From an uncultured Dehalococcoidia bacterium (GTDB taxonomy: Bacteria; Chloroflexota; Dehalococcoidia; Dehalococcoidales; UBA1222), in assembly GCA_903844845.1 (NCBI GenBank), contig CAIMVG010000008.1, positions 12,672 to 76,671 of the forward strand: a stretch of 64,000 bases of DNA. Reading direction: 5' to 3'. The notes under the pieces are model-generated. The model made no database searches. It saw only the letters and a list, made by a program, of their open reading frames with translations, and was not told the DNA's origin. Numbering within the stretch: position 1 is the first letter of the stretch; every line of letters begins with the position of its first letter. The translations under genes were made by a program, and so were the position numbers. Shown one piece after another: positions 4,880 through 45,630 of this stretch.

Positions 4880-4958
4880 CAAACTCAAATCAAATAAATC
4901 CGGTTAACCGGCGCTGACCGTTTAGGTACGGGCCGGTTGCGACTAACCCCATACCGAT

Positions 4959-5414
4959 CTAAGAAGCAACCGGAATGGTACCAACAGGCGCGATGTTTAT
5001 ATCGATCATAAATATCGAGTGAAGGTCTTTGTTAAAGTAATTATTGAATTCCTGTTCAGTCGAATTGAACTTTAGGGTTTGTATCTCCGATGAGCTTAAC
5101 TGCGCCGGCGTCCACGAAATGACGGTATCGCTCCTCTTACTTCCATTTTCATATAGATCGACTTGATAAACGATGCCTGCTTTGGCCAATGAACCAGGCT
5201 CTAACTCCACGTTGATCGTGAAGGTCGCGATTTCATGATAATAATCGTTAGAACCATAAACCGGGATGCAATCAACATAAATATTTTTTGGGGTCACAGT
5301 CGTCGCGGGTTGGCTGGTAATTTCAGTAATTCCAGTGGTGTTTGAGGACCCGCCACAGGCGCTGAGAATAAGCAGCGCTGAGGCAAATATGAATAAACCA
5401 ATCTTAGCGGCCAT
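4959..5414 (-). CDS. Lipoprotein, function unknown
   Basis: Signal peptide with lipobox LLILSAC. No recognisable family. Confidence 0.7.
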   Translation of the reverse strand: MAAKIGLFIFASALLILSACGGSSNTTGITEITSQPATTVTPKNIYVDCIPVYGSNDYYHEIATFTINVELEPGSLAKAGIVYQVDLYENGSKRSDTVISWTPAQLSSSEIQTLKFNSTEQEFNNYFNKDLHSIFMIDINIAPVGTIPVAS

Positions 5415-5525
5415 AATTTCTCCTTTAAGAAACCGACATTTTCACAGATTGCCACACTTTGAAAAGCCGGACGCGATACTACCATACACAGATCGCAATC
5501 TTCCTACGCAATCCCCACTTGTTTT

Positions 5526-5545
5526 ATGAACATATGCTCATTATA
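5526..5545. promoter_or_regulatory. Copy 1 of identical 20-nt promoter/operator block ATGAACATATGCTCATTATA
   Basis: Exact 20/20 match to 24670-24689. Contains the quasi-palindrome TGAACATATGCTCA. The minus strand reads TTGATG-17-TATAAT toward the lipoprotein gene, and the plus strand reads TTGTTT-17-TATAGC toward the 5790 operon. Confidence 0.55.
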
Positions 5546-5789
5546 GCCATCAAAGGATTCAACATCAAGTAGTTTAACCTACCCAAACCCGTAAAAAGAG
5601 AGCCACGAAAACCAACCCGAGCGCTCTTTTCCCTCTGGTCGATATCATATATTTCATAATATCAAAATACTCTTTAAGTTCCATAAGAGCATTGACATTG
5701 ACTTGCCTTATAAGAAGGTTTATCTTATCATTAAAATGCTTAATAGCGCATTTAGGCTTATTTAAGTTAAACCACTTAAAAGGACATCC

Positions 5790-6326
5790 ATGGCTATCAA
5801 ATCGAAAAATAGCGATTCGGTTGGCGATGGTCTCGTTACGTTCCGCGACGTCGCCAGTGCGATGAAGGGCGAGCGTGTCCTAAGAAGTTCAGGCTACGAG
5901 GTCAAACTGGTAGCACCTCCCGCTGAACTGCGCCTGGGCTGCGACCTGGCGCTGGAGGTCAACCTGGTCGAGCAGGCGGGCATCGAGAGGGTCTTCACAG
6001 ATGAGGATGTAACCTTTGTAAGTTTCACACCCCTTTCCACTCATTCCTCACCGATGTGCGACATCGTCAAGGTGACCGATTTCGGCCAGTGGGTGATGAT
6101 TAAGTGCGGCAATATGAAGCTCTCTTTTGAGAAAGCCACCGGGAAAATCGTGAACGTCTCGGGCGGCGGCTGCCCCGACATACCCTACCTCAACGCCGAA
6201 ATGGTTGACAAGACCCTTACCGCTGCGCCGCATCCCAACGAACTGGGTTATACCCTGTGCGCCACCATGCTTGAGCGTGCCTACGAAGAAGCTCTGAACA
6301 TCTATAATGGAGATACCCGCTCATGA
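5790..6326 (+). CDS. DUF3343-like (putative S/Se carrier fold) protein with extra C-terminal domain
   Basis: N-terminal FRDVASAMKGERVLRSSGYEVKLVAPPAELRLGCDLAL resembles DUF3343. C-terminal half (GGGCPD) is unassigned. RBS AAGGA. The stop overlaps the next start (ATGA). Confidence 0.6.
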   Translation: MAIKSKNSDSVGDGLVTFRDVASAMKGERVLRSSGYEVKLVAPPAELRLGCDLALEVNLVEQAGIERVFTDEDVTFVSFTPLSTHSSPMCDIVKVTDFGQWVMIKCGNMKLSFEKATGKIVNVSGGGCPDIPYLNAEMVDKTLTAAPHPNELGYTLCATMLERAYEEALNIYNGDTRS

Positions 6327-7207
6327 TGCTGCTTTTCGGAACCATCCCGGATAAAAACCTGCCGATGACTTATGGCCAGGTGCGCCAGGAAGGCGATTAC
6401 CTCTACGCGGACGGCCAACGTTTTTCTCGCACCCAGGGCACAGGCGCCATGATCAGCGCGGCGCTGGCCATATGCAACTATTTCAAACTGGATCCCCCGC
6501 ATGTGCTGGTGGCAGGCGACATCGGAGACGGCAAAGGCACACGGGACATCTACAAATACCTGACCGAACATGTGGTCGAACTGGCACCCGCAGTGATCAC
6601 CATGCATTACAGCCTGCCTATCATGGCACTGCTGAAAAAATTGTGCGACACCATAAAAGGTTGCGAAAAGCGTCCATTCATGATCGCCGACGCCGGGGCG
6701 ATGTACGCTGCCAAGGGCGCCGGGTTGGCAACGGAATTCGATATCTTTACACCTGACACGTCCGAAATTGCTTTCCTGGCTGATCCGCAAGCTACACATC
6801 CGGCCTATATCTCGCATCATCTTCTTGCTTGCGATGCAGATAAAATTCCAGGCCAGATTGCAGATGCCTTCAAGAACAATAGCGCAGCCAAATTGCTTCT
6901 GGTGAAAGGCAAGACGGATTACGTGGCGCAGGCCAGAGAAATACTGGCTACCATCGATGAGCCCAACGTTCCTACCCTGGAACCTATAGGCGGCACGGGG
7001 GACACCATCACCGGCCTGGTTTCCGGCCTGGTATATGCCGGGATGGAACCCAAGAACGCTGCGATTTTTGCCTGCCGCACCAACCGCACGGCAGGGATTT
7101 TGGCCCGACCGACTCCCGCCACCAAAGTGAAGGATATAATAGACCAGTTCCCGGTGGTCTGCAGGGACTATTACGATGCATGGAACAAAAATGTAAAAAT
7201 ACTTTAG
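6323..7207 (+). CDS. YjeF_C / ribokinase-like small-molecule kinase or dehydratase homologue
   Basis: GGTGDTITGLVSGL resembles the GG(S/T)GDxLxG lid of NAD(P)HX-dehydratase-type kinases. Translationally coupled to the upstream gene. Confidence 0.55.
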   Translation: MMLLFGTIPDKNLPMTYGQVRQEGDYLYADGQRFSRTQGTGAMISAALAICNYFKLDPPHVLVAGDIGDGKGTRDIYKYLTEHVVELAPAVITMHYSLPIMALLKKLCDTIKGCEKRPFMIADAGAMYAAKGAGLATEFDIFTPDTSEIAFLADPQATHPAYISHHLLACDADKIPGQIADAFKNNSAAKLLLVKGKTDYVAQAREILATIDEPNVPTLEPIGGTGDTITGLVSGLVYAGMEPKNAAIFACRTNRTAGILARPTPATKVKDIIDQFPVVCRDYYDAWNKNVKIL

Positions 7208-7232
7208 TATTTTTGATAAAGGAGGGAAATAG

Positions 7233-7838
7233 ATGGCCAGATGGTTATCGAAAAAAGACCCCACCCCTTCGGCTCCCAAAAAGATACATACCAGCAAAAA
7301 CACGATGCCAACCCCTTTCATTCTTGTCAGCGCTTTTGCCTTGATATTGGGTCTGATCAGCTTCCCCAAATTCCCTTGCCCGACTTGCGACGGCACAGGG
7401 ATACTGGCTTCATCCCAGGGTTTAAAAGCCACGGTAGCCGCCTGTAATTTGATCGAAAGCTACATCCCCTTGACATGTTGCGACCACCCGCAGGTCCAAT
7501 ACGCTTATGATGTCAGTCTTTTGATAGAGAACGATGGAGCGAAAACTATTAACGGCACCGTAACCGTGAGTTTTTATGATATCGAGCCAGCACTCACTTC
7601 AAGCAAGGATGTAAATACAGCCGCGGAAGGTGTTTTCCCGGTACAAGTTGATGTACCCGGAGGCACAACTGTAACAGTTGACCAGCAACTTACATTCATC
7701 TCCGTATCTGATATATTGAACCAGCCGCATAGAGTGACGGTCCAATCCGGAAACGTAGAAACAAAGAACGCCTGTCCATTGTGCAACGGGACAGGCAAGC
7801 TGCCTTTTTATAGCTGGTTAGAGGCCCATATCAGATGA
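7233..7838 (+). CDS. Single-pass membrane protein with two DnaJ-type zinc-knuckle motifs
   Basis: AAGGAGGG RBS. TM helix PFILVSAFALILGLISF. CPTCDGTG near the helix and CPLCNGTG near the C-terminus. The stop overlaps the next start. Confidence 0.65.
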   Translation: MARWLSKKDPTPSAPKKIHTSKNTMPTPFILVSAFALILGLISFPKFPCPTCDGTGILASSQGLKATVAACNLIESYIPLTCCDHPQVQYAYDVSLLIENDGAKTINGTVTVSFYDIEPALTSSKDVNTAAEGVFPVQVDVPGGTTVTVDQQLTFISVSDILNQPHRVTVQSGNVETKNACPLCNGTGKLPFYSWLEAHIR

Positions 7839-8320
7839 AACTCAAGATAAACCCTAACTATATTGTCATCACAGGGTTCACAATCGGAATTGCTGCGGCG
7901 GCAGCCCAGGCTTTCTTTGATGTACAACCTCCGCAGGCATATGGAGTCTGTTTGATCGGTCATCCATCAATACTGGTCAAATGGTTTATGAACCACATCT
8001 TCGGAATGCATTTGCCAATAAGCACGGCATTTTTAGTTTATCCGTCTTTGCTGGTAGCAGGCATAACAGGTGGAGCTCTATTTTCATCTATAAAGAGCGG
8101 GGAATTCAAGACAACATTAAAGATGAAACCTGCCAGCACACGCAGCAAGTTCAATGCCATACTTTTTGGTTTTCTTGTGGCTAACTTTGGATTGATCGTC
8201 GGCGCCTGTCCCATACGAACCGCGCTCCTGGTAAGTTACGGAAGCGTATTAGGGGGCATAATGCTGGCAGCTATCATTTTTGGGGTTTTTCTGGCAACAC
8301 TCCGTTTACGTCGATCATAG
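7835..8320 (+). CDS. YeeE/YedE-family sulfur/selenium transport protein, N-terminal half of a split transporter
   Basis: Polytopic. Cys-containing motifs AYGVCLIGH and VGACPIRT. Confidence 0.7.
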   Translation: MKLKINPNYIVITGFTIGIAAAAAQAFFDVQPPQAYGVCLIGHPSILVKWFMNHIFGMHLPISTAFLVYPSLLVAGITGGALFSSIKSGEFKTTLKMKPASTRSKFNAILFGFLVANFGLIVGACPIRTALLVSYGSVLGGIMLAAIIFGVFLATLRLRRS

Positions 8321-8335
8321 AAAGGACCAATTATT

Positions 8336-8773
8336 ATGTTGGCTTTTATAGCGACTTTGGTGATAGGTTTGGTTCTGGGATATCTCGGGCAAAGGTCTCG
8401 TTTTTGCGCAGTAAGCGGTTTCCGGGATTGGTTTTTAATCCGTGATACTCGCCTGCTTAAAGGATATGGGGCGCTTTTAGCCGGCGGAGTGCTAGGGTAT
8501 GCATTTTTTAAACTTATAGGCGGGAAAATACTCAATTACCCCCTTGGAATGGATATAGGTACCGCAGGGGGAGCCGCAGTAATCGCCATTGCCGCAATCG
8601 GGATGGCATATTTTTCTACGCTGGCTGATGGCTGTCCATTCAGGCAACATGTAGCAGCAGCAACAGGCAGTACAACCAGCCTTTTATATTTGCTGGGTTT
8701 TTACACAGGCATAGTCTACTTTTTCCTGGTGACTACAAATATAGTGAGCATTATCTCGAAGTTAATAACCTGA
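8336..8773 (+). CDS. YeeE/YedE-family sulfur/selenium transport protein, C-terminal half
   Basis: RSRFCAVSGF and ADGCPFRQ motifs typical of the YeeE/YedE sulphur-transport domain. Polytopic. Confidence 0.75.
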   Translation: MLAFIATLVIGLVLGYLGQRSRFCAVSGFRDWFLIRDTRLLKGYGALLAGGVLGYAFFKLIGGKILNYPLGMDIGTAGGAAVIAIAAIGMAYFSTLADGCPFRQHVAAATGSTTSLLYLLGFYTGIVYFFLVTTNIVSIISKLIT

Positions 8774-8937: not shown

Positions 8938-10329
8938 TTATTCCCAGCCGAACGGCGGGAGATCCAGGTCCCAGAATTCATCAGGGTTTTTATTCAGGCC
9001 ATTTCCCATCAAGCCATCTAACATTTTGACAGCTTTGTCGAGAGACGGTGCGGTCGCGATTGCATTATTCAAGATATTCCTGAAAATGGTCCCGTTTATA
9101 CCCCGGGAAAGCGGGCAAACTGCGAAACAGGTACTACAGCCCTCGGAATAGCCCATGATCTTTATATTGGTTAAACACGCTGCTTCATCGCGATGCCAGC
9201 TCTTGATGCCTGTTTGCTGATAATCCCCCCGGATATTCCACGATGTTTCCGTGTCTTTGGGAATCGCCCCAGACGGGCAATGATCGGCGCATTTCTTACA
9301 TATGCGGCAAAAACGCATGACTCCGAAATCAACCGGTTTACCCGGAGCGAGCGGGAGGTCGGTGATAAGTTTGAACACCCTCTGTCTGACTCCATACACA
9401 GGGGTCACCATGTGCATCGTTCGGCTATGCTCTCCAAGTCCGGCCATAATACCGAACCCAACAGAGGAACCGAGGGAGTCATAAGGATTGGCTTCTCCCA
9501 AACCCATATAACCAAGCCCCCGAAGAAAAAGTTGCAACTGGCCCTGGATGATGCTTTTAAGGTTATATGCATTTTCGGTCGGCGCCATAATCATCTGCGT
9601 GGGGGCGCTTTGTACTAGCTGATCGGCCATGCGTATCGTGTAGACTATTACCCATCGTGCCTTCCTGGGTATGATCCGTTCGGTTTTTGTTTCCGACGCC
9701 TGTGTCGCATCCGAGAAGGTCAGCTTCAAGCCCTGCGACGCGCCGGTGCCTGTGTCATACGAATATACCAGCTTTTCCGTGGTAAGCGAGTCAAGTTCCA
9801 CGAAACCGACTTCGGCCGCCCCGTGAAAACGCATAAAAGCGCGAATCATCCTGGCGTTTTCCTCCGGTTTTCCTTCGTAGACGGGGACTCCGAGGTCCCC
9901 TGGTGTCTGGTTTGTCGTTGGCCCGATGAAGCTGGTCGGCGCGAAGTATGTCGCATTGACGAAAGCATCGTCTTTCAGAGTATAGCCAGGCGTATTTGCC
10001 TTGAGACGACTTAACCGGTTGTTTCTCTGGGCCTCCATGACGTGGAGATATTGTGAAGTTCCCAGGGCTTTCTGCAGGCCGCTGGCCCAGACTACCTTGC
10101 TGTAGTCGAAGCGGTTCATTGCAGTCCAGTCAATATCTACCGTCGGCTTTTCTACCTCTCGTATATAAGAGGGCCGCATGGAAACAGCCGCCGGGGATGC
10201 CATGATTTCGTCAAGGTCATGTACCGCCCGGGCAGGGAAAAGCACCGGCGCAGCACCGCATGCCAATGCTCCCAAACCGAGCGATTTGAGGAAATCCCGT
10301 CTGCTGATGCTCGAATGGTATTTATTCAA
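8938..10329 (-). CDS. rdhA: Reductive dehalogenase homologue, catalytic subunit (RdhA)
   Basis: Twin-arginine signal SRRDFLKSLGLGALACGA. C-terminal Fe-S motifs CRICKKCADHCP and CSTCFAVCP. 463 aa. Confidence 0.85.
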   Translation of the reverse strand: MNKYHSSISRRDFLKSLGLGALACGAAPVLFPARAVHDLDEIMASPAAVSMRPSYIREVEKPTVDIDWTAMNRFDYSKVVWASGLQKALGTSQYLHVMEAQRNNRLSRLKANTPGYTLKDDAFVNATYFAPTSFIGPTTNQTPGDLGVPVYEGKPEENARMIRAFMRFHGAAEVGFVELDSLTTEKLVYSYDTGTGASQGLKLTFSDATQASETKTERIIPRKARWVIVYTIRMADQLVQSAPTQMIMAPTENAYNLKSIIQGQLQLFLRGLGYMGLGEANPYDSLGSSVGFGIMAGLGEHSRTMHMVTPVYGVRQRVFKLITDLPLAPGKPVDFGVMRFCRICKKCADHCPSGAIPKDTETSWNIRGDYQQTGIKSWHRDEAACLTNIKIMGYSEGCSTCFAVCPLSRGINGTIFRNILNNAIATAPSLDKAVKMLDGLMGNGLNKNPDEFWDLDLPPFGWE

Positions 10330-17630: not shown

Positions 17631-17891
17631 TTACGTTTTGGATATTCTTATCGCAAACAAAGGACACGCTCGCAAACACTCTCCACAACCCCTGCAGGTA
17701 AATAATCCAGTTGTAGGTATCTCATACAAGTTATCTTGTTTAATCAGCCTGTAACTGCAAGCCAAACTCGCCTTGCATATGCCGCCTTCGCATTGATCAG
17801 GGTGGCATTTACTATAATCTAATAAAGCCACCTTACCAGGCACTGTCTTTCCCTGGTTTATCCTTCGAGCATTTCGTGCAATAACCTTCAA
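17631..17891 (-). CDS. Small 4Fe-4S ferredoxin-like protein
   Basis: Cys patterns CHPDQCEGGICKASLAC and CRGCGECLRACP. The listed ATG overlaps the fur-family gene by 59 nt. A GTG at 17831, 1 nt after that gene's stop, is an alternative start. Confidence 0.6.
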   Translation of the reverse strand: MKVIARNARRINQGKTVPGKVALLDYSKCHPDQCEGGICKASLACSYRLIKQDNLYEIPTTGLFTCRGCGECLRACPLFAIRISKT

Positions 17892-18276
17892 GGTAAAGCT
17901 CGGCTTTGGTTACAGAAAAGCCTTGTTCTTCTTTCACTTTATCAACAAGTTCGCTCAGCGGGCATTCAAAATCAACCACTTTACCGCAACCTCCGCAAAC
18001 CAGATGCTGGTGCTGTTTAGCATGCTTGATCTCATAGGAGCAACGCGCCTGTCCCAACCTCTTCTCATCTATGAGGCCTAACTTGCTAAAGAGATGAAGG
18101 TTACGATAAACCGTGGCAGTGCTGATGCTATTATCCCTATCATTGGCCAGTGTGAATAATTTCTTGGCATCAAGATGACCATCGGCTTCGCGAATAATTT
18201 GCAGCAACAAATCTCTCTGTCTAGTTTGAGGATGTCCTTGCATTTCGTTTGCTTTGCGAATGATTCTCTTTCTCAT
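17833..18276 (-). CDS. Fur-family (Fur/PerR/Zur) transcriptional regulator
   Basis: Winged-helix N-domain. HQHLVCGGCGKV...CTKC structural zinc site. Confidence 0.85.
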   Translation of the reverse strand: MRKRIIRKANEMQGHPQTRQRDLLLQIIREADGHLDAKKLFTLANDRDNSISTATVYRNLHLFSKLGLIDEKRLGQARCSYEIKHAKQHQHLVCGGCGKVVDFECPLSELVDKVKEEQGFSVTKAELYLEGYCTKCSKDKPGKDSAW

Positions 18277-21412: not shown

Positions 21413-22258
21413 CTATATGGGTAGCGTGAAATGCGATCCAGCCGAGTTCAATAAACAGTGTTCGCCAAACGCCCGTTTCAATCGCTCCGAGGCCGGCAAT
21501 CCGGTGCAATGGGAGACAATAATTCGCTGAACGCCTATTTCCTTTAGCCCGTTAATTGTGCTTTCAATTCGTTCTTCAGCAGCTCGACCGAGGTGCATGC
21601 CTCCGATAACCATCGCAACTTGTTGAATCCCGGTCAATCTGCGGGCATGGAGCAGCGTGTTAACCACACCGCGGTGGGCACAACCAAGGACAACTACGAG
21701 ACCTTCACACGTATCAATCATTAAAGACGTATCATCAAATATTTTATCTTGTTCAAAAAACCCATCGTTTTTGACAAGGAGGTTCTCATCAACATCTTCA
21801 TAAGTTGTCATCAGGGGAATCGTCCCGCTGGTGAAAATACCTGAGGCTATTCCAAACGATTCTCTGTCCAATATGAAGCTTGCGCCGCATTTTTCAAGCT
21901 CTGACCTCGAATATGGCAAGCCGATCGAGCGGCAGTTTTCTTCACCGGGGCGATGCACGTACCTGGGTTTAAATATATCAGGATGGGCGATGATTGTTGT
22001 CGGCCCGGCATCCCTGAGCACATCGAGCAGCCCCCCTGTGTGGTCAGCATGCCCGTGGCTTAACACTATGGCATCCAGTCGTTTAAGCTCGATATTGAGC
22101 AGTTTGGCGTTCTTGGCCACAATATCACTGGCACCCGTGTCGAATAGAATACGTTTCCCATCTGCTTCGATAAGCAGGCTGAGACCCCACTCGGCGTGAA
22201 AACCTTCGCCGGCGATATTATCGCTTAAAGTTGTAATCCGAAGCTGAGAAACCATCAT
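21413..22258 (-). CDS. MBL-fold metallo-hydrolase
   Basis: LSHGHADHTGG motif. Start placed at ATG 22258, 4 nt after the upstream stop (listed ORF extends to 22339). Confidence 0.8.
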   Translation of the reverse strand: MMVSQLRITTLSDNIAGEGFHAEWGLSLLIEADGKRILFDTGASDIVAKNAKLLNIELKRLDAIVLSHGHADHTGGLLDVLRDAGPTTIIAHPDIFKPRYVHRPGEENCRSIGLPYSRSELEKCGASFILDRESFGIASGIFTSGTIPLMTTYEDVDENLLVKNDGFFEQDKIFDDTSLMIDTCEGLVVVLGCAHRGVVNTLLHARRLTGIQQVAMVIGGMHLGRAAEERIESTINGLKEIGVQRIIVSHCTGLPASERLKRAFGEHCLLNSAGSHFTLPI

Positions 22259-22262
22259 TTTG

Positions 22263-22679
22263 TCAATCTGAACGCGGATGTAAATAATCAGCCAGGGCGA
22301 GTTGCAGTGTCCCGACCGCCAGCGAGGCGCAGTGCTCATGGTCTACAGGCAATCCGCCCAGGGCCTGAGAAATGTTCTCAGGAACAATGCCGCGAACCTC
22401 TTCTACTGTTTTACCCCTGGCAATTTCAGTCGCCATGCTTCCGCTGGCTATGCTTGGGCCACAGCCATCTGTATGGAAAGTGACATCTTTTACAATATTC
22501 TGCTCAATCAAAATCCACATGCTCATCATGTCCCCGCAGTAGCCGTCATTGATAGCAAAACCATTGTAGGCTTCAGGGAGTTTCATATTGCGCGGGTTAC
22601 GGGCATGATCTATGAGTATGGCAGAGTACTTGAACCCCTCGGCATTAACAGCACTGCCAGGCAGGGAAGCATCAGTCAT
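22263..22679 (-). CDS. IscU/NifU-like Fe-S cluster scaffold
   Basis: Cluster ligand regions GYCGD, TDGCGP and HCASLA. Confidence 0.85.
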   Translation of the reverse strand: MTDASLPGSAVNAEGFKYSAILIDHARNPRNMKLPEAYNGFAINDGYCGDMMSMWILIEQNIVKDVTFHTDGCGPSIASGSMATEIARGKTVEEVRGIVPENISQALGGLPVDHEHCASLAVGTLQLALADYLHPRSD

Positions 22680-22699: not shown

Positions 22700-23692
22700 T
22701 TATTTTTCCAAAAGATCTGCAACCAAAGCGAGTTTCTTTACGGCATCAAGTTGACAATCCTCGATATGGCCCGAATCGCAGAGCGCGGCCAGGTTAGGAT
22801 CGATGGGGATCTGTGCCAGTAACGGGGCGCCTGCATCCCGGGCAAGCTCCGCTCCGCGGCTTGGGCCAAAGACTGCAATCTTGCGGTCGATATCGCCCAG
22901 ATAGAGGTAACTCATATTCTCAACTACTCCGAGGATGCGGCTGTGAGCTTGCTGAGCCATGCTTATCGCCTTCCTGACAATCATGGAAGCCAGTTCCTGG
23001 GGTGTGGAAACTATCACAATACCATTGAGCGGAAGAGATTGAATCACAGTGAGAGGCGCATCGGCCGTACCGGGCGGCAGATCTACTATGAGGTAATCCA
23101 GTTTACCCCAGAATACCTCTTCCCAGAATTGTTTGATAGCCTTGCCGATAAGCGGACCGCGCCAAATGACCGCGTCGCCCTCGTTACCCAGCAAGAGGTT
23201 GACGGACATCACTGCGATACCTGAAGCCGACAGCACAGGGAAAAGCCCTTCCGCACAGGCTGAGGGTTTTTGGGTTAGACCAAACATCCTGGGGATGCTG
23301 GGACCGGTGATGTCGGCATCCAGTATGCCAACGCTATAGCCTTTTCGCTTCAAACCGATCGCTATCAATCCGCTCACCAGGGACTTCCCCACTCCGCCTT
23401 TGCCGCTCATCACGGCAACGACGTGACTGATTTCATTGAGTTCGGATGGCCTCCCCGGGACGAAAGTCAACTCAACCTTGTCTATCCCGGGCAGTTTTTT
23501 AAGTTCTTTAACGATCCGGGTTTTCAAAGCGTGTTGCTCGGGTTCGTTCATGGCAACAGCAGCCATTTGAAGTTCGACCCCGCTGTCGCTAAGCCGCACT
23601 GCACGAATCAGATTCAGGCTGCTCACGCAGCGTCCAAACGCGGGCAGGACAATGGCTCCCAATGCCCGGCGCACTTCCCCTTCGCTTGACAT
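22700..23692 (-). CDS. Mrp/NBP35/ApbC-type Fe-S cluster carrier ATPase
   Basis: Deviant Walker A SGKGGVGKS. N-terminal DUF59-like region. Confidence 0.9.
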   Translation of the reverse strand: MSSEGEVRRALGAIVLPAFGRCVSSLNLIRAVRLSDSGVELQMAAVAMNEPEQHALKTRIVKELKKLPGIDKVELTFVPGRPSELNEISHVVAVMSGKGGVGKSLVSGLIAIGLKRKGYSVGILDADITGPSIPRMFGLTQKPSACAEGLFPVLSASGIAVMSVNLLLGNEGDAVIWRGPLIGKAIKQFWEEVFWGKLDYLIVDLPPGTADAPLTVIQSLPLNGIVIVSTPQELASMIVRKAISMAQQAHSRILGVVENMSYLYLGDIDRKIAVFGPSRGAELARDAGAPLLAQIPIDPNLAALCDSGHIEDCQLDAVKKLALVADLLEK

Positions 23693-23711: not shown

Positions 23712-24107
23712 TTAATGACAACTACCGTGTTGTTCTGCATGGTGCTCGCCCGCGTGGTCGCAAATTTCGTCTGGGTGTCCGCAGACGTTCTGTCCAATGA
23801 CAAGCGTATGATTTATGTTGGCCAGCACTGCTTTTTCAGGGTCCATTTCGGCGACCCCCAGTACTACGTCTATCCCCTTGCTTTCGAAAGCCATCCTCGG
23901 CCCCATTCCCATGCCACCTGCCAAGACTGTTTTCACACCGAGTTCCGAAAGCAATTGAGGCAGGCTCCCGCAGTTGTGAGCTATGGTGGACACCGTCTTC
24001 TTGCCGGATATTTCCCCGTTTTTGTCGGTATCGATGATCATGAATTCGGTCGACTGCCCGAAGTGTTGTGATAATTTACCGTTGCTGGTAGGAATGGCGT
24101 ATTTCAT
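23712..24107 (-). CDS. NifX/NifB-C-like (Fe-Mo cofactor-binding fold) protein with His-rich tail
   Basis: AIPTSNGKLSQHFGQSTEFMIID...VLAGGMGMG. C-terminal HAGEHHAEQHGSCH. Confidence 0.8.
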   Translation of the reverse strand: MKYAIPTSNGKLSQHFGQSTEFMIIDTDKNGEISGKKTVSTIAHNCGSLPQLLSELGVKTVLAGGMGMGPRMAFESKGIDVVLGVAEMDPEKAVLANINHTLVIGQNVCGHPDEICDHAGEHHAEQHGSCH

Positions 24108-24209: not shown

Positions 24210-24653
24210 TTATGACCCATTATTTTCTGCCGTATCTCGGAGGGGGACATCGGATGGTTGGTCGAGTGCTTCGGTTTTGGCGCAAAAGGGGCATTTAGCA
24301 CTCTGTTTGCGGGGAGCATCGATTTGCGGGAGATGTTTCTCCAGGCAACCAGGGCTTGTGCTGATTATCTGGAAGCTGCCCCCCTCTATCCGTATTGCCT
24401 TGCCGTTCAGGAGCGCATCAGCTACTTTTGTCCTTGCCGAGGATAGAACCCGCTGGAATGTGGAACGGGAGATTTCCATACTGGCGGCGCCTTCAACCTG
24501 CTCCAACCCCTCGAGGTCTTTCAACCTAAGCGCTTCGGCTTCTTCAATGGAAAGGTGGATTTCAGTTAAAAAATGCAGAGGTATCCCCGCTGGCTTAAAA
24601 TAAGTGACATCGGGTAATGCAGACACCATGCGGCATTTCTTAGATTTAACCAT
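24210..24653 (-). CDS. DUF134 (UPF0251) predicted DNA-binding protein
   Basis: YFKPAGIP...LSIEEAEALRLKDLEGLEQVEGAASMEISRSTFQRVL (sigma70 region-4-like HTH). C-terminal CPFC. Confidence 0.8.
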   Translation of the reverse strand: MVKSKKCRMVSALPDVTYFKPAGIPLHFLTEIHLSIEEAEALRLKDLEGLEQVEGAASMEISRSTFQRVLSSARTKVADALLNGKAIRIEGGSFQIISTSPGCLEKHLPQIDAPRKQSAKCPFCAKTEALDQPSDVPLRDTAENNGS

Positions 24654-24662
24654 ATATTAGCC

Positions 24663-24691
24663 TTGACTAATGAACATATGCTCATTATAAT
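24663..24691 (+). promoter_or_regulatory. Consensus promoter (TTGACT-17-TATAAT) containing copy 2 of the 20-nt block
   Basis: The plus-strand promoter faces the DsrE-like gene. The 20-mer at 24670-24689 fills the spacer and -10. The minus strand also reads TATAAT (24689-24684), 31 nt upstream of the DUF134 ATG. Confidence 0.6.
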
Positions 24692-24755
24692 AAGCTGAAT
24701 CAGGTCCAATGTCAACCTTTGGTTCCCTGAAAATAACGATGGAGGAATTTAAACC

Positions 24756-25109
24756 ATGAAGCTGCTTATTATTCTGAATGGGAATCCCTACGACGGTTCG
24801 GATGTAACCCGGAATGCTCTTCGACTTGCTGACTTCACCCTCAAAGCATTAGATAACGTGTCTCTCTTCTTGATGAATGATGCGGTGGACCTGGCAAGGG
24901 AAGGCGTCTTACCAGGAGCGTATGATACCAATCTTGGAGGTATGCTGGCTGAGTTGATAGCTAAAGGTGTCCCGGTCAAAGTGTGCGGCACGTGTCTGAC
25001 TCGTTGCGGAACGGCCAGAAATCTGCCGCTGATGCGTGGAGCTATCCAGGCCAAAATGCCTGAATTAGTAGTCTGGCTTCAAGAAGCGGATAAAGTTATC
25101 TCGTTCTAA
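24756..25109 (+). CDS. DsrE/DsrF-like sulfur-relay family protein
   Basis: MKLLIILNGNPYDG...VKVCGTCL. 117 aa. Confidence 0.75.
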   Translation: MKLLIILNGNPYDGSDVTRNALRLADFTLKALDNVSLFLMNDAVDLAREGVLPGAYDTNLGGMLAELIAKGVPVKVCGTCLTRCGTARNLPLMRGAIQAKMPELVVWLQEADKVISF

Positions 25110-25664: not shown

Positions 25665-25796
25665 AATGGCTTCAGGGATTGATCTATTATTTCAGATTGG
25701 CAGCGGGGGCATATCTGGAATAAATAAATTGGATCACATTAGATTATGAGGCTACCGGATGAGACAAAACCAGCGTCGAACGACAGGCCTAGCAAG

Positions 25797-26010
25797 ATGA
25801 CAGAAAAAGATAGTGCCCACCAAATACCAATTGCAATAATCAGAGTTGGGTGGCTTTCCCTAGGCGTAAATATAGGATTAGTTGCCGTTAAACTCACCCT
25901 GTCTTTCGCGACAGGCAGCCTGGCGCTCCGCGCTGACTCTATTCACTCAATGGTTGACGTTTTTGTCTCCATCGCTCTGATTGTTGGTCTCTTTATTTCC
26001 GGCCGCAGGT
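25797..26010 (+). pseudogene. N-terminal stub of a cation diffusion facilitator (CDF) transporter
   Basis: GSLALRADSIHSMVDVFVSIALIVGLFISGR is CDF TM2-TM3-like. Similarity stops near 26007, and the ORF then runs into unrelated sequence. Confidence 0.5.
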
Positions 26011-26049
26011 ATTGTGATGCCAGCTTGACGATATCTGCTCGAAGCCGCT

Positions 26050-26257
26050 CCCCTAATACACCGGGTTCGTTGTAGTCCGCCGCTCCGTGGTAGAGAAACT
26101 CCATCGCGAACATCGTTTTACCGGTGCCCGCCGCTCCGCACAGGAGGGTCGGCCTGCCTTTGGGCAAGCCGCCTTGAGTGACATCGTCCAGCCCATAAAT
26201 ACCGGTGGGGGATTTTGGCAGAGCGGTGGAATTGGCAGAGGTTTTGGCTTTAGGCAT
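26050..26257 (-). pseudogene. N-terminal stub of a KaiC/RecA-superfamily ATPase
   Basis: GGAGG RBS. TGIYGLDDVTQGGLPKGRPTLLCGAAGTGKTMFAMEFLYHGAADYNEPGV is KaiC-like with a Walker A. Similarity ends after about 68 aa, where the ORF becomes antisense of the CDF stub. Confidence 0.5.
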
Positions 26258-44283: not shown

Positions 44284-45630
44284 ATGGCAAAACGTTCATA
44301 CCTGATCACCAGAAGGGACTTTTTAAAAGCCATGGCGGCTGCGGCAGTTGCAGCTGCTGCAGGGGGAAGCCTGACGTTTCAGGGATCCTGTAAAAAAGCC
44401 CCGGCCATCCCCAAGGGCCTGGAAAAAATCGACCACTTCATATTCATCATGCAGGAGAACCAGAGTTTCGACCACTACTTCGGCACTTACCCCGGCGCCG
44501 ACGGCCCCCCTCCCGGCACCGCACTCCTCGATCCTACCGACAACACCATGGTTCCCTTTTACCACCTGACCTCTGACGTAGATTTTGATGCGCCGCATGA
44601 TTGGTTCAACGCCCAGGCGGACATCAATGGCGGCAAGATGGACGGTTTCCTGGCCCAGGCTTACACTCGGTATGCTCTGACAGTTCCTTCCTACAGCACT
44701 CAACCAGGGTACAATCCCAAGGAAATCATGGGATATTACGACGGCAGCGACATCCCCAACTTCTGGAACTACGCGCGCCTTTACACGCTTCAGGACCATA
44801 TGTTCGAATCGGTTGCGGCCTACAGCCTGCCTTCACACCTTTACATGATGGCGGCCCAGGCAGGAGGCTACCTGGGGACACCGCAGCCTTATCCCACAGA
44901 GTTCGATTTCCCCGAGATAACAGAACTTCTGGCGAATGAGAATATTTCGTGGAATTATTACGTGACATCAGGCAAGAGCCTCGACAGCCAGGGCCAGGCC
45001 ATCGGCTCAGCAGCAGACCAGGCGAACGACCCCGACCAGTTCACGTTGTGGAACCCTCTGCCCGCGTTCCCCAAAGTCCAGAACGACGACAGCCAGAGGG
45101 TGCGGATGGTCGACACCGCACAGTTCTATCTCGATGCCAAGGCCGGGACGCTGCCTTCAGTAAGCTGGATTTGCCCATTCTTCCTGAATCCGCTCAGCGA
45201 CCATCCGGCTTTCAAGGGCGGCACCCGCAACTGCATGGCCTATGTCACCGGATTAATAAACGCGGTGCAGCAGAGCCCCAACTGGGAGTCCAGCGCCATT
45301 TTCGTCTCTTGGGACGATTGGGGCGGCTATTACGACCACGTGCCGCCACCCAAAGTTGACATCTACGGGTACGGCCTCAGGGTGCCGAGCTTCGTCGTCA
45401 GCCCGTACGCCAAACAGGGTTATATAGACAAAAAGGTTTATTCCTTCGATTCCTGGCTTAAAACGATCGAACAACGCTGGGGCATCGCCTCGATGACAAA
45501 ACGCGACCAGAATGCCCTCGACATGATGGACTGTTTCGACTTCACCCAGCTGCCCCGCTCACCCGTCATCTTCGACCCGACGACAAAGGGAACGCCTTAC
45601 CCTTGCCCGCTGCAAACGATAAAACACTGA
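44284..45630 (+). CDS. Tat-exported phosphoesterase family protein (phospholipase C / acid phosphatase AcpA-like)
   Basis: TRRDFLKAMAAAAV Tat signal. IDHFIFIMQENQSFDHYFGTYPG. Confidence 0.85.
   Translation: MAKRSYLITRRDFLKAMAAAAVAAAAGGSLTFQGSCKKAPAIPKGLEKIDHFIFIMQENQSFDHYFGTYPGADGPPPGTALLDPTDNTMVPFYHLTSDVDFDAPHDWFNAQADINGGKMDGFLAQAYTRYALTVPSYSTQPGYNPKEIMGYYDGSDIPNFWNYARLYTLQDHMFESVAAYSLPSHLYMMAAQAGGYLGTPQPYPTEFDFPEITELLANENISWNYYVTSGKSLDSQGQAIGSAADQANDPDQFTLWNPLPAFPKVQNDDSQRVRMVDTAQFYLDAKAGTLPSVSWICPFFLNPLSDHPAFKGGTRNCMAYVTGLINAVQQSPNWESSAIFVSWDDWGGYYDHVPPPKVDIYGYGLRVPSFVVSPYAKQGYIDKKVYSFDSWLKTIEQRWGIASMTKRDQNALDMMDCFDFTQLPRSPVIFDPTTKGTPYPCPLQTIKH

Follow-up and report, generated by a model that had tools for sequence, protein, structure and literature searches.

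Among the systems described so far, the closest to the gene cluster considered here are the orp clusters of Desulfovibrio vulgaris, which encode the MinD-ferredoxin ATPases Orp3/4, the NifX-like Mo-Cu-S protein Orp8 and MrpORP (PMC6345978, PMC4641369). In Desulfovibrio two orp operons are driven by sigma-54 together with the enhancer-binding protein DVU2106 (PMC4641369). Here we analysed a 64-kb stretch of DNA (hereafter the window, meaning the whole stretch of 64,000 nucleotides) from an uncultured freshwater Dehalococcoidia population, near-identical contigs of which are found in several lake metagenomes. One operon of the window joins genes for a NifX-like and an Mrp/NBP35 protein to a gene for a DUF134 (UPF0251/COG1342) protein, a family annotated only as 'predicted DNA-binding protein'. 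A 20-bp palindrome lies in the promoter of this operon (site 2) and at one other place (site 1), between a lipoprotein gene and a sulfur/selenium (S/Se) trafficking operon, and we argue that both copies are probably operators for the DUF134 protein.

An initial annotation of this DNA had reported a 20-nt block, ATGAACATATGCTCATTATA, with 20/20 identity and in the same orientation at two loci, and had judged a chance repeat of this kind improbable. Both statements hold. The block lies at 5526-5545 and 24670-24689, on the + strand in each case, there is no further copy in the window even when up to 3 mismatches are allowed, and 100 dinucleotide shuffles of the window gave 0 matches. The same annotation described a quasi-palindrome directly abutting a -10 element. 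The functional unit, however, would be a 20-bp palindrome and not the 14-nt one first proposed (Table 1). Read on the - strand, the block consists of TATAAT and the 16-nt operator core, and its borders are those of the -10 hexamer and the core end. Moreover, the two sites have the same asymmetric arms (GAGC...GTTC), which among the closest relatives recur in L006 alone (loci are cited by L numbers), the others having GCTC. Because the identical block is made up of TATAAT and core and the arms are asymmetric alike, common descent by duplication or conversion is suggested rather than convergence; the flanks of the two sites, by contrast, are unlike each other.

The palindrome is a regular feature of DUF134 promoters in related bacteria. 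Our comparison set comprised 80 loci from GTDB genomes, nearly all of them Dehalococcoidia metagenome-assembled genomes, with a DUF134 homologue of 47-74% identity; a site was called where a 20-bp palindrome within 6 mismatches of TTATGAGCATATGCTCATAA occurred in the 200 nt upstream of DUF134. Such a palindrome is found in 78/80 loci, ending 10-66 nt before the start codon, and the comparison of orthologous intergenic regions that the initial annotation had proposed thus shows the site 2 motif to be kept. Its consensus consists of the half-sites T[TA]ATGRRCAT and ATGYYCAT[AT]A in an even 10+10 symmetry, the centre falling between the A and T of CATATG. Over the 78 sites ATG..CATATG..CAT is nearly invariant, and the RR/YY and outer T/A positions are variable. 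A weight matrix built from these 78 promoter sites (family motif T[TA]ATGRRCATATGYYCAT[AT]A; consensus score 36.6 bits) finds sites 1 and 2 and, as the next best position in the window, one of 1.3 bits; the highest score in 30 shuffles was 15 bits. Across 792 kb of the relatives' loci there are only 3 further sites of at least 16 bits, each directly upstream of a second DUF134 paralogue, and 81/81 sites at this threshold therefore precede DUF134 genes. Shuffles of the same 792 kb gave 0. To our knowledge, ATGRRCATATGYYCAT matches no known regulator box.

Site 2 is orthologous to the operators of L151-L153, L005 and L147, and its promoter aligns base for base, from the -35 to the ATG, with those of the closest relatives (66-73% protein identity). 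In the wider set a sigma-70-type promoter is present in 78/79 upstream regions, with TTGACA in 61, and in 69/78 loci the palindrome follows the end of the -10 by 2-3 nt. Since the -10 ends so close ahead of it, the palindrome would span approximately -5 to +15 relative to the predicted start, the classic position of a repressor. At site 2 the gap from -10 to palindrome is -1 and the operator lies 14 nt from the DUF134 ATG. The - strand TATAAT that had been noted upstream of this operon is present as a second -10 candidate, 3 nt beyond the TATTAT of TTGACA-17-TATTAT (24715-24687, - strand). On the opposite strand, the promoter described as facing the DsrE-like gene was recovered by the promoter scan, and the operator exactly occupies its 17-nt spacer. 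L005, the closest GTDB relative, is the only one to share this back-to-back layout (TTGACT-17-TACAAT), with another gene on the divergent side; no conserved divergent partner gene of DUF134 was found in the relatives, the neighbours being heterogeneous. Of the two promoters previously read at site 1, the - strand TTGATG-17-TATAAT also passes the scan. The weaker + strand TTGTTT-17-TATAGC (5519-5547) is legible in the sequence but degenerate, its second hexamer lacking the final T, and fails the scan rule.

Distant members of the family tell a similar story. Upstream of all 8 distant DUF134 genes taken from plasmid-collection records (8/8; Clostridium butyricum, Peptoclostridium, Acetoanaerobium, Roseburia, Selenomonas, Klebsiella, Aeromonas and Salinivibrio) there are CATATG- or CATAAG-centred palindromes of the form TTGRCATATGYCAA or TAGCATATGCCAA. 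Several of these genes have two copies of the palindrome, and their neighbour genes are unrelated. The -35 hexamer falls within the palindrome in Roseburia and C. butyricum, and the -10 comes after it. In total, 198 plasmid records contain a DUF134 homologue, mostly from Klebsiella, Citrobacter and Escherichia. A DUF134 and NifX-like gene pair with two tandem GCATATGCC operators is carried by a Klebsiella quasipneumoniae IncFII/IncR plasmid (L139, 2920-3740) and an Aeromonas media IncU plasmid (L146); on these conjugative enterobacterial plasmids the pair sits in a stress island with PaaI thioesterase, Dps, ArsR and FAD oxidoreductase genes.

The protein encoded in the window scores 77.9 bits on PF02001, for which the gathering cutoff is 27, its residues 3-96 aligning to profile positions 6-97 of 98, and has weak matches to the Pfam Sigma70_r4_2 and ECF profiles. 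The family is large, with 3708 cluster representatives (clusters at 50% identity) at E<=1e-3 in 1.84 billion proteins, and no solved DUF134 structure was found by sequence search. An AlphaFold2 (AF2) model has a predicted local distance difference test score (pLDDT) >88 over residues 31-90 and shows three helices, residue 67 falling in the first turns of the last one (helix 63-83), the predicted recognition helix. Foldseek matches it best to sigma-E region 4 on -35 DNA (2h27; 51 residues at a root-mean-square deviation (rmsd) of 1.0) and to the DNA-binding domain of DeoR on its operator (7bhy), both with an rmsd of 0.7-1.0 A over 40-51 residues and a target-normalised TM-score of ~0.7. Residue 67, a glutamine in the window protein (STFQRVL), co-varies with the operator. 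Proteins with Q67 are preceded by ATGxGCAT in 102/110 half-sites, and those with H67 in 0/34, where 32/34 half-sites read ATGxACAT; the association of Q/H with G at half-site position 5 has a Fisher p = 1e-25, uncorrected for phylogeny. S67 and A67 variants have further operator variants as well as tandem sites. Behind the DNA-binding core lies a tail with C103-x3-H ... C121-x2-C124, in which C103 is invariant and C124 is at least 90% conserved, and some homologues carry a fused NifX-like domain in its place.

Tandem operators of different type, for instance ATGGACATAAGTGCAA followed by GGGCTTAAGCCC with a central TTAA, were observed upstream of S67 DUF134 paralogues in L038, L052, L063, L070 and L074. 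Tandem sites also occur in loci of the H type (L060, L062, L068 and L071). Such tandem arrays of unlike operators suggest operator codes specific to subfamilies.

That the adjacent DUF134 protein is the regulator sharing the two sites was already proposed in the initial annotation. The motif at 78 of 80 DUF134 promoters, the distant palindromes and the co-variation at residue 67 all strengthen this proposal, and binding by DUF134 itself is indirectly supported by a motif that travels with the gene, by co-variation, by the modelled fold and by the lack of competing sites. From sequence, conservation, geometry, co-variation and fold we infer binding and repression by a dimer under control of an effector, and we put the probability that both copies are operators for the helix-turn-helix protein of 24210-24653 at roughly 0.7. 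A DUF134 dimer would bind the 20-bp palindrome. At site 2, through which the DUF134-NifX-Mrp-NifU (ORP-like) operon is most probably autoregulated, the bound protein would cover the -10 and expected start and thereby repress its own operon (DUF134, NifX-like, Mrp, NifU and metallo-beta-lactamase (MBL) hydrolase genes). Since the DNA of site 2 also fills the spacer of the DsrE promoter, one dimer would shut both divergent transcripts. At site 1, an extra copy of -10 plus operator, combined with a TTGATG -35, would place the lipoprotein gene under the same control. As the signal that DUF134 would sense, metal-sulfur cluster status is suggested by the conserved Cys/His tail, by the NifX-like neighbour gene and by the fusions of DUF134 to NifX.

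Table 1. Features of the window that bear on the two candidate operators (positions numbered from the first nucleotide of the window).
Feature	Position	Strand	Basis
Lipoprotein, likeliest target of site 1	4959..5414	-	signal peptide + lipobox
Site 1, candidate 20-bp DUF134-type operator, TTATGAACATATGCTCATTA on + strand	5524..5543		weight matrix, 34.0 bits
Promoter-like TTGATG-17-TATAAT at site 1, toward 4959-5414; -10/operator overlap 4 nt	5540..5568	-	promoter scan, 10/12
S/Se-trafficking operon, possible target of site 1: DUF3343/Se_S_carrier, carbohydrate-kinase-like, 201-aa CxxC protein, split YedE/YeeE	5790..8773	+	Pfam/NCBIfam
Se_S_carrier/DUF3343	5790..6326	+	Pfam
Sulf_transp	8336..8773	+	Pfam
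MBL-fold hydrolase	21413..22339	-	Pfam/NCBIfam
NifU_N	22263..22679	-	Pfam
Mrp/NBP35 (FeS_assembly_P)	22700..23692	-	Pfam PF10609
NifX-like/ORP-like (Nitro_FeMo-Co)	23712..24107	-	Pfam PF02579
DUF134/UPF0251 protein, proposed repressor, sigma-70 region-4-type helix-turn-helix	24210..24653	-	Pfam PF02001
Opposite-strand promoter toward DsrE, TTGACT-17-TATAAT	24663..24691	+	promoter scan, 11/12
Site 2, candidate 20-bp DUF134-type operator, TAATGAACATATGCTCATTA on + strand	24668..24687		weight matrix, 32.5 bits
DUF134 operon promoter, TTGACA-17-TATTAT, operator directly after	24687..24715	-	promoter scan, 11/12
DsrE/DsrF-like sulfur-relay protein, divergent to DUF134	24756..25109	+	Pfam PF02635

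The lipoprotein gene is the favoured recipient of a transcript from site 1, because its promoter on the - strand is good (10/12), the hexamers read on the + strand are degenerate and better promoter candidates for DUF3343 exist elsewhere (5698-5731, >150 nt downstream of the operator). The operator lies 109 nt from the lipoprotein ATG and 246 nt from the DUF3343 start. The lipoprotein itself has no Pfam or NCBIfam match, and 5.8 billion proteins yielded just 6 homologues. These few homologues share ~95 nt of conserved sequence ahead of the start (...GGCTTTTCAAnGnGT..ATCTnTGAAAATGTCGGTTTCTnAAAGGAGAAA; window 5415-5500 on the - strand, and the leaders of L085 and L087). This homology runs up to the operator and excludes it. 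Because of this, and because site 1 is absent from the homologues of both flanking genes, site 1 is lineage-specific and lies at a rearrangement junction.

Several observations weigh against the operator reading. A motif in front of the gene for a regulator is not in itself proof that this regulator binds there, and since H, S and A variants group together in the tree, the Q/H co-variation may represent only 1-3 evolutionary events. The sequence of the window was found in DNA metagenomes only, with no RNA runs containing it. For site 1, none of the contigs with lipoprotein homologues (four at 81-86% identity, one at 64%) holds a site of at least 8 bits, and the conserved leader, long at 109 nt, may hold a proximal promoter of its own. 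On the other flank, 46 metagenome loci with a DUF3343 homologue (51-82% identity) have neither a site of at least 10 bits nor a DUF134 gene. Strains that do have site 1 are nearly identical (0-2 differences in the 375-nt intergenic region) and offer no test of constraint. The argument for a function of site 1 is one of sequence quality alone.

It is necessary to ask whether site 1 does anything. It could be a non-functional by-product of a recent short duplication, a gene conversion or a rearrangement that copied the -10 and operator of the DUF134 promoter, with no effect on either neighbour, and its position exactly where the lipoprotein-leader homology to L085/L087 ends, its absence from every homologous locus and the altered order of the S/Se genes all agree with such a scar. 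Likewise, 20/20 identity that extends to degenerate positions fits a recent copy, and truncated gene remnants near site 2 mark a region prone to rearrangement. However, site 1 is complete and scores at least as well as the bona fide site (34.0 vs 32.5 bits), its - strand has a good -35, gained or retained, at a distance of 17 nt, and an intact core between dissimilar flanks implies selection, provided that the copy is not very recent. Moreover, an intact high-affinity operator would titrate or bind the repressor whatever its origin. On balance we regard a site without regulatory effect as unlikely.

Alternatively, site 1 may mainly serve the + strand DUF3343-kinase-YedE operon, with DUF134 coordinating sulfur/selenium supply and cluster assembly. 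The idea has functional coherence, given the DsrE, NifU, Mrp and NifX-like genes at site 2, and it has a parallel in L149. In this relative DUF134 (67% identical) stands divergent to the orthologous YedE-TusA-DUF3343-kinase operon (55% and 68% identity); 278 nt separate the operator from the start of the S/Se operon and the promoter points away, which is nearly the geometry of site 1. This is the only such case among ~90 DUF134 loci, and the homology between the site 1-DUF3343 spacer and the L149 operator-YedE spacer is weak; as evidence for DUF134 control of the S/Se operon through site 1 the L149 case is suggestive only. The gene order also differs. In the window DUF3343 is followed by the kinase-like gene, the CxxC gene and YedE in two ORFs, and TusA is missing, compared with YedE-(TusA)-DUF3343-kinase in the relatives (L091-L133, L149); in the 46 metagenome loci DUF3343 is an internal operon gene after YedE. 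Against this proposal stand the weak + strand hexamers at site 1, the better candidates >150 nt past the operator and the 46 loci lacking both site and DUF134 gene, and we consider the S/Se operon improbable as the main target of site 1. Convergent to the S/Se operon and adjoining it is a reductive-dehalogenase-like gene (8938-10329, - strand; PF13486, two 4Fe-4S motifs and a TAT signal), which fits the Dehalococcoidia origin of the DNA.

The operator reading names DUF134 as the binding protein. A different trans-acting factor, such as a Fur-family protein, LexA or another metal regulator, might bind instead, DUF134 being merely the first of the genes regulated. DUF134 is always first in its operon, and footprinting alone could not separate 'regulator of' from 'regulated with'. 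A Fur-family gene does lie in the same neighbourhood (~17833-18276, - strand, located from L001 16378-16821), at a distance of ~6 kb from the DUF134 operon; the genes after it are those for thioredoxin, a P-type ATPase and DsbD-like proteins, and it has no DUF134-type site near it. Fur-family boxes are AT-rich inverted repeats of odd symmetry, 7-1-7 or 9-1-9. A box of this type (TGATAATnATTATCA type) was rejected, as the motif has even 10+10 symmetry and invariant G/C positions and travels with DUF134 to the plasmids of other phyla. LexA is suggested by the similarity of GAACATATGCTC to the Gram-positive box GAAC-N4-GTTC. Yet the family consensus reads GAGC...GCTC and its invariant bases are ATG..CATATG..CAT; 102/110 Q-type half-sites are of the GAGC type, with G where LexA needs A, and the sites precede DUF134 and not lexA or repair genes. 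The only LexA-like near-match in the window, at 44793-44806, is inside a coding gene. Furthermore, no other site occurs in the window, those in the 792 kb of relatives occur only ahead of DUF134 genes, the motif accompanies DUF134 onto enterobacterial, Aeromonas and Clostridia plasmids among unrelated neighbours, and the operator variant tracks a residue of the predicted DUF134 recognition helix. Binding by such another factor is quite unlikely.

Lastly, the palindrome would occupy roughly +1 to +15 of the predicted mRNA and can form a hairpin of 7-8 bp (consensus -8.8 kcal/mol, window copy -6.3); as a 5'-terminal RNA element it could act in the stability or translation of DUF134 mRNA. This is very improbable, given that variation is lowest in CATATG, which would supply the loop and its closing bases, that 6/8 sites asymmetric at the variable pair would have A.C or G.A mismatches in RNA (-0.6 kcal/mol for the L007-type site), that the palindrome of Roseburia and C. 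butyricum is upstream of the -10 and so not transcribed, and that 4900-5900 has no Rfam match to a riboswitch or other RNA.

The genes around site 2 are in keeping with a metal-sulfur function. Pfam upheld the initial calls of DUF134, DsrE, DUF3343 and Sulf_transp, and the window has just the one DUF134 gene. The gene order of the DUF134 operon is the same in L001-L004, and the next gene after DUF134 is NifX-like in the window as at many other loci. Against the C-terminal domain of the NCBIfam MrpORP model the window NifX-like protein scores 86.5 bits, under the full-length cutoff of 450 bits. In a typical relative the operon runs DUF134, DUF364/DUF4213, DUF5320, NifX-like, two MinD-type ATPases with an inserted ferredoxin, and then NifX-like, Mrp and NifU; Orp3/4-type MinD ATPases are present downstream of DUF134 in many relatives, and tblastn found no Orp3/4, DUF364 or DUF5320 in the window. 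A DsrE homologue is located inside the DUF134 operon of one relative, L035. Two strains of the same species (L003, 1551-1694; L004, 16-159) have DsrE cut after ~47 codons and followed by Zn-ribbon and Pyr_excise genes, with the DUF134 promoter and operator unchanged. Beyond DsrE in the window, 25746-26075 (+) and 25943-26257 (-) are overlapping convergent fragments of genes for a cation-efflux protein and a KaiC/RecA-type ATPase, each of which reaches only to about position 53 of its profile; they look like truncated remnants of a rearranged region.

In summary, for a family with only a general annotation we can offer an operator consensus and a promoter geometry that predicts repression, together with a candidate specificity residue and a core operon of ORP-like metal-sulfur cluster genes. 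The second copy would represent growth of a regulon by the copying of a 20-30-nt promoter/operator module. There is also a hint that sulfur/selenium trafficking (DsrE, DUF3343, YedE) is coupled to cluster assembly in Dehalococcoidia of the organohalide-respiring type. Taken as a whole, DUF134/UPF0251 proteins may be widespread autoregulated factors of Chloroflexota, Bacillota and proteobacterial plasmids that bind a CATATG-centred operator, with base specificity set in part by residue 67 (Q67 reading G and H67 reading A at half-site position 5), and that sense metal-sulfur cluster status, by means of the Cys/His tail or of a NifX-like protein acting as partner or fused domain, in order to control ORP-like operons, the regulon here having just been extended to a new gene by an operator copy. 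We advance this composite picture tentatively, as one with a little less than an even chance of being right in all its parts. The mechanism is conventional, namely an autorepressor and palindromic operator with one extra target. The assignment of the operator to the DUF134 family appears to be new, since full-text literature searches returned no description of a binding site or regulon for DUF134, UPF0251 or COG1342.

Compared with the orp clusters of D. vulgaris, the DUF134 operons of the relatives likewise contain NifX-like, two MinD/ferredoxin ATPase and Mrp/NBP35 genes, with DUF364 and DUF5320 in addition. The window shares the NifX-like and Mrp/NBP35 genes of what is an anaerobe-specific metal-sulfur cluster module. 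However, its operon lacks the Orp3/4 pair, DUF364 and DUF5320, and Mrp and NifX-like are separate genes. Regulation would also differ, as the promoters found here are sigma-70-like with a DUF134 operator (no scan for sigma-54 promoters was made).

A Gram-positive-type LexA (Cheo) box, CGAAC-N4-GTTCG, has reportedly been described for Dehalococcoides. It belongs to the same length class as the DUF134 palindrome, has an AT-rich centre and resembles the GAAC/GTTC-like arms of some copies, including one arm of the window sites. In contrast, the DUF134 arms are GAGC/GCTC, and the flanking ATG/CAT and central CATATG are foreign to LexA boxes. The best structural counterparts of the DUF134 core are region 4 of ECF sigma factors on -35 DNA (2h27) and the Bacillus subtilis DeoR domain (7bhy). 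Unlike these, DUF134 has no sigma region 2 and possesses an N-terminal beta-hairpin region and the Cys/His tail; moreover, it would bind a palindrome as a dimer and not the -35 as a part of RNA polymerase. In its proposed logic the system resembles the classical autorepressors (LexA and the auto-operators of TetR-type and ArsR-type proteins), with an inverted repeat of ~20 bp at its own -10/+1, one operator for two divergent promoters and a small regulon with an extra copy elsewhere. It differs in the protein that would carry this logic out, which has a helix-turn-helix of the sigma-70 region-4 type and a Cys/His tail rather than a winged-helix or TetR fold.

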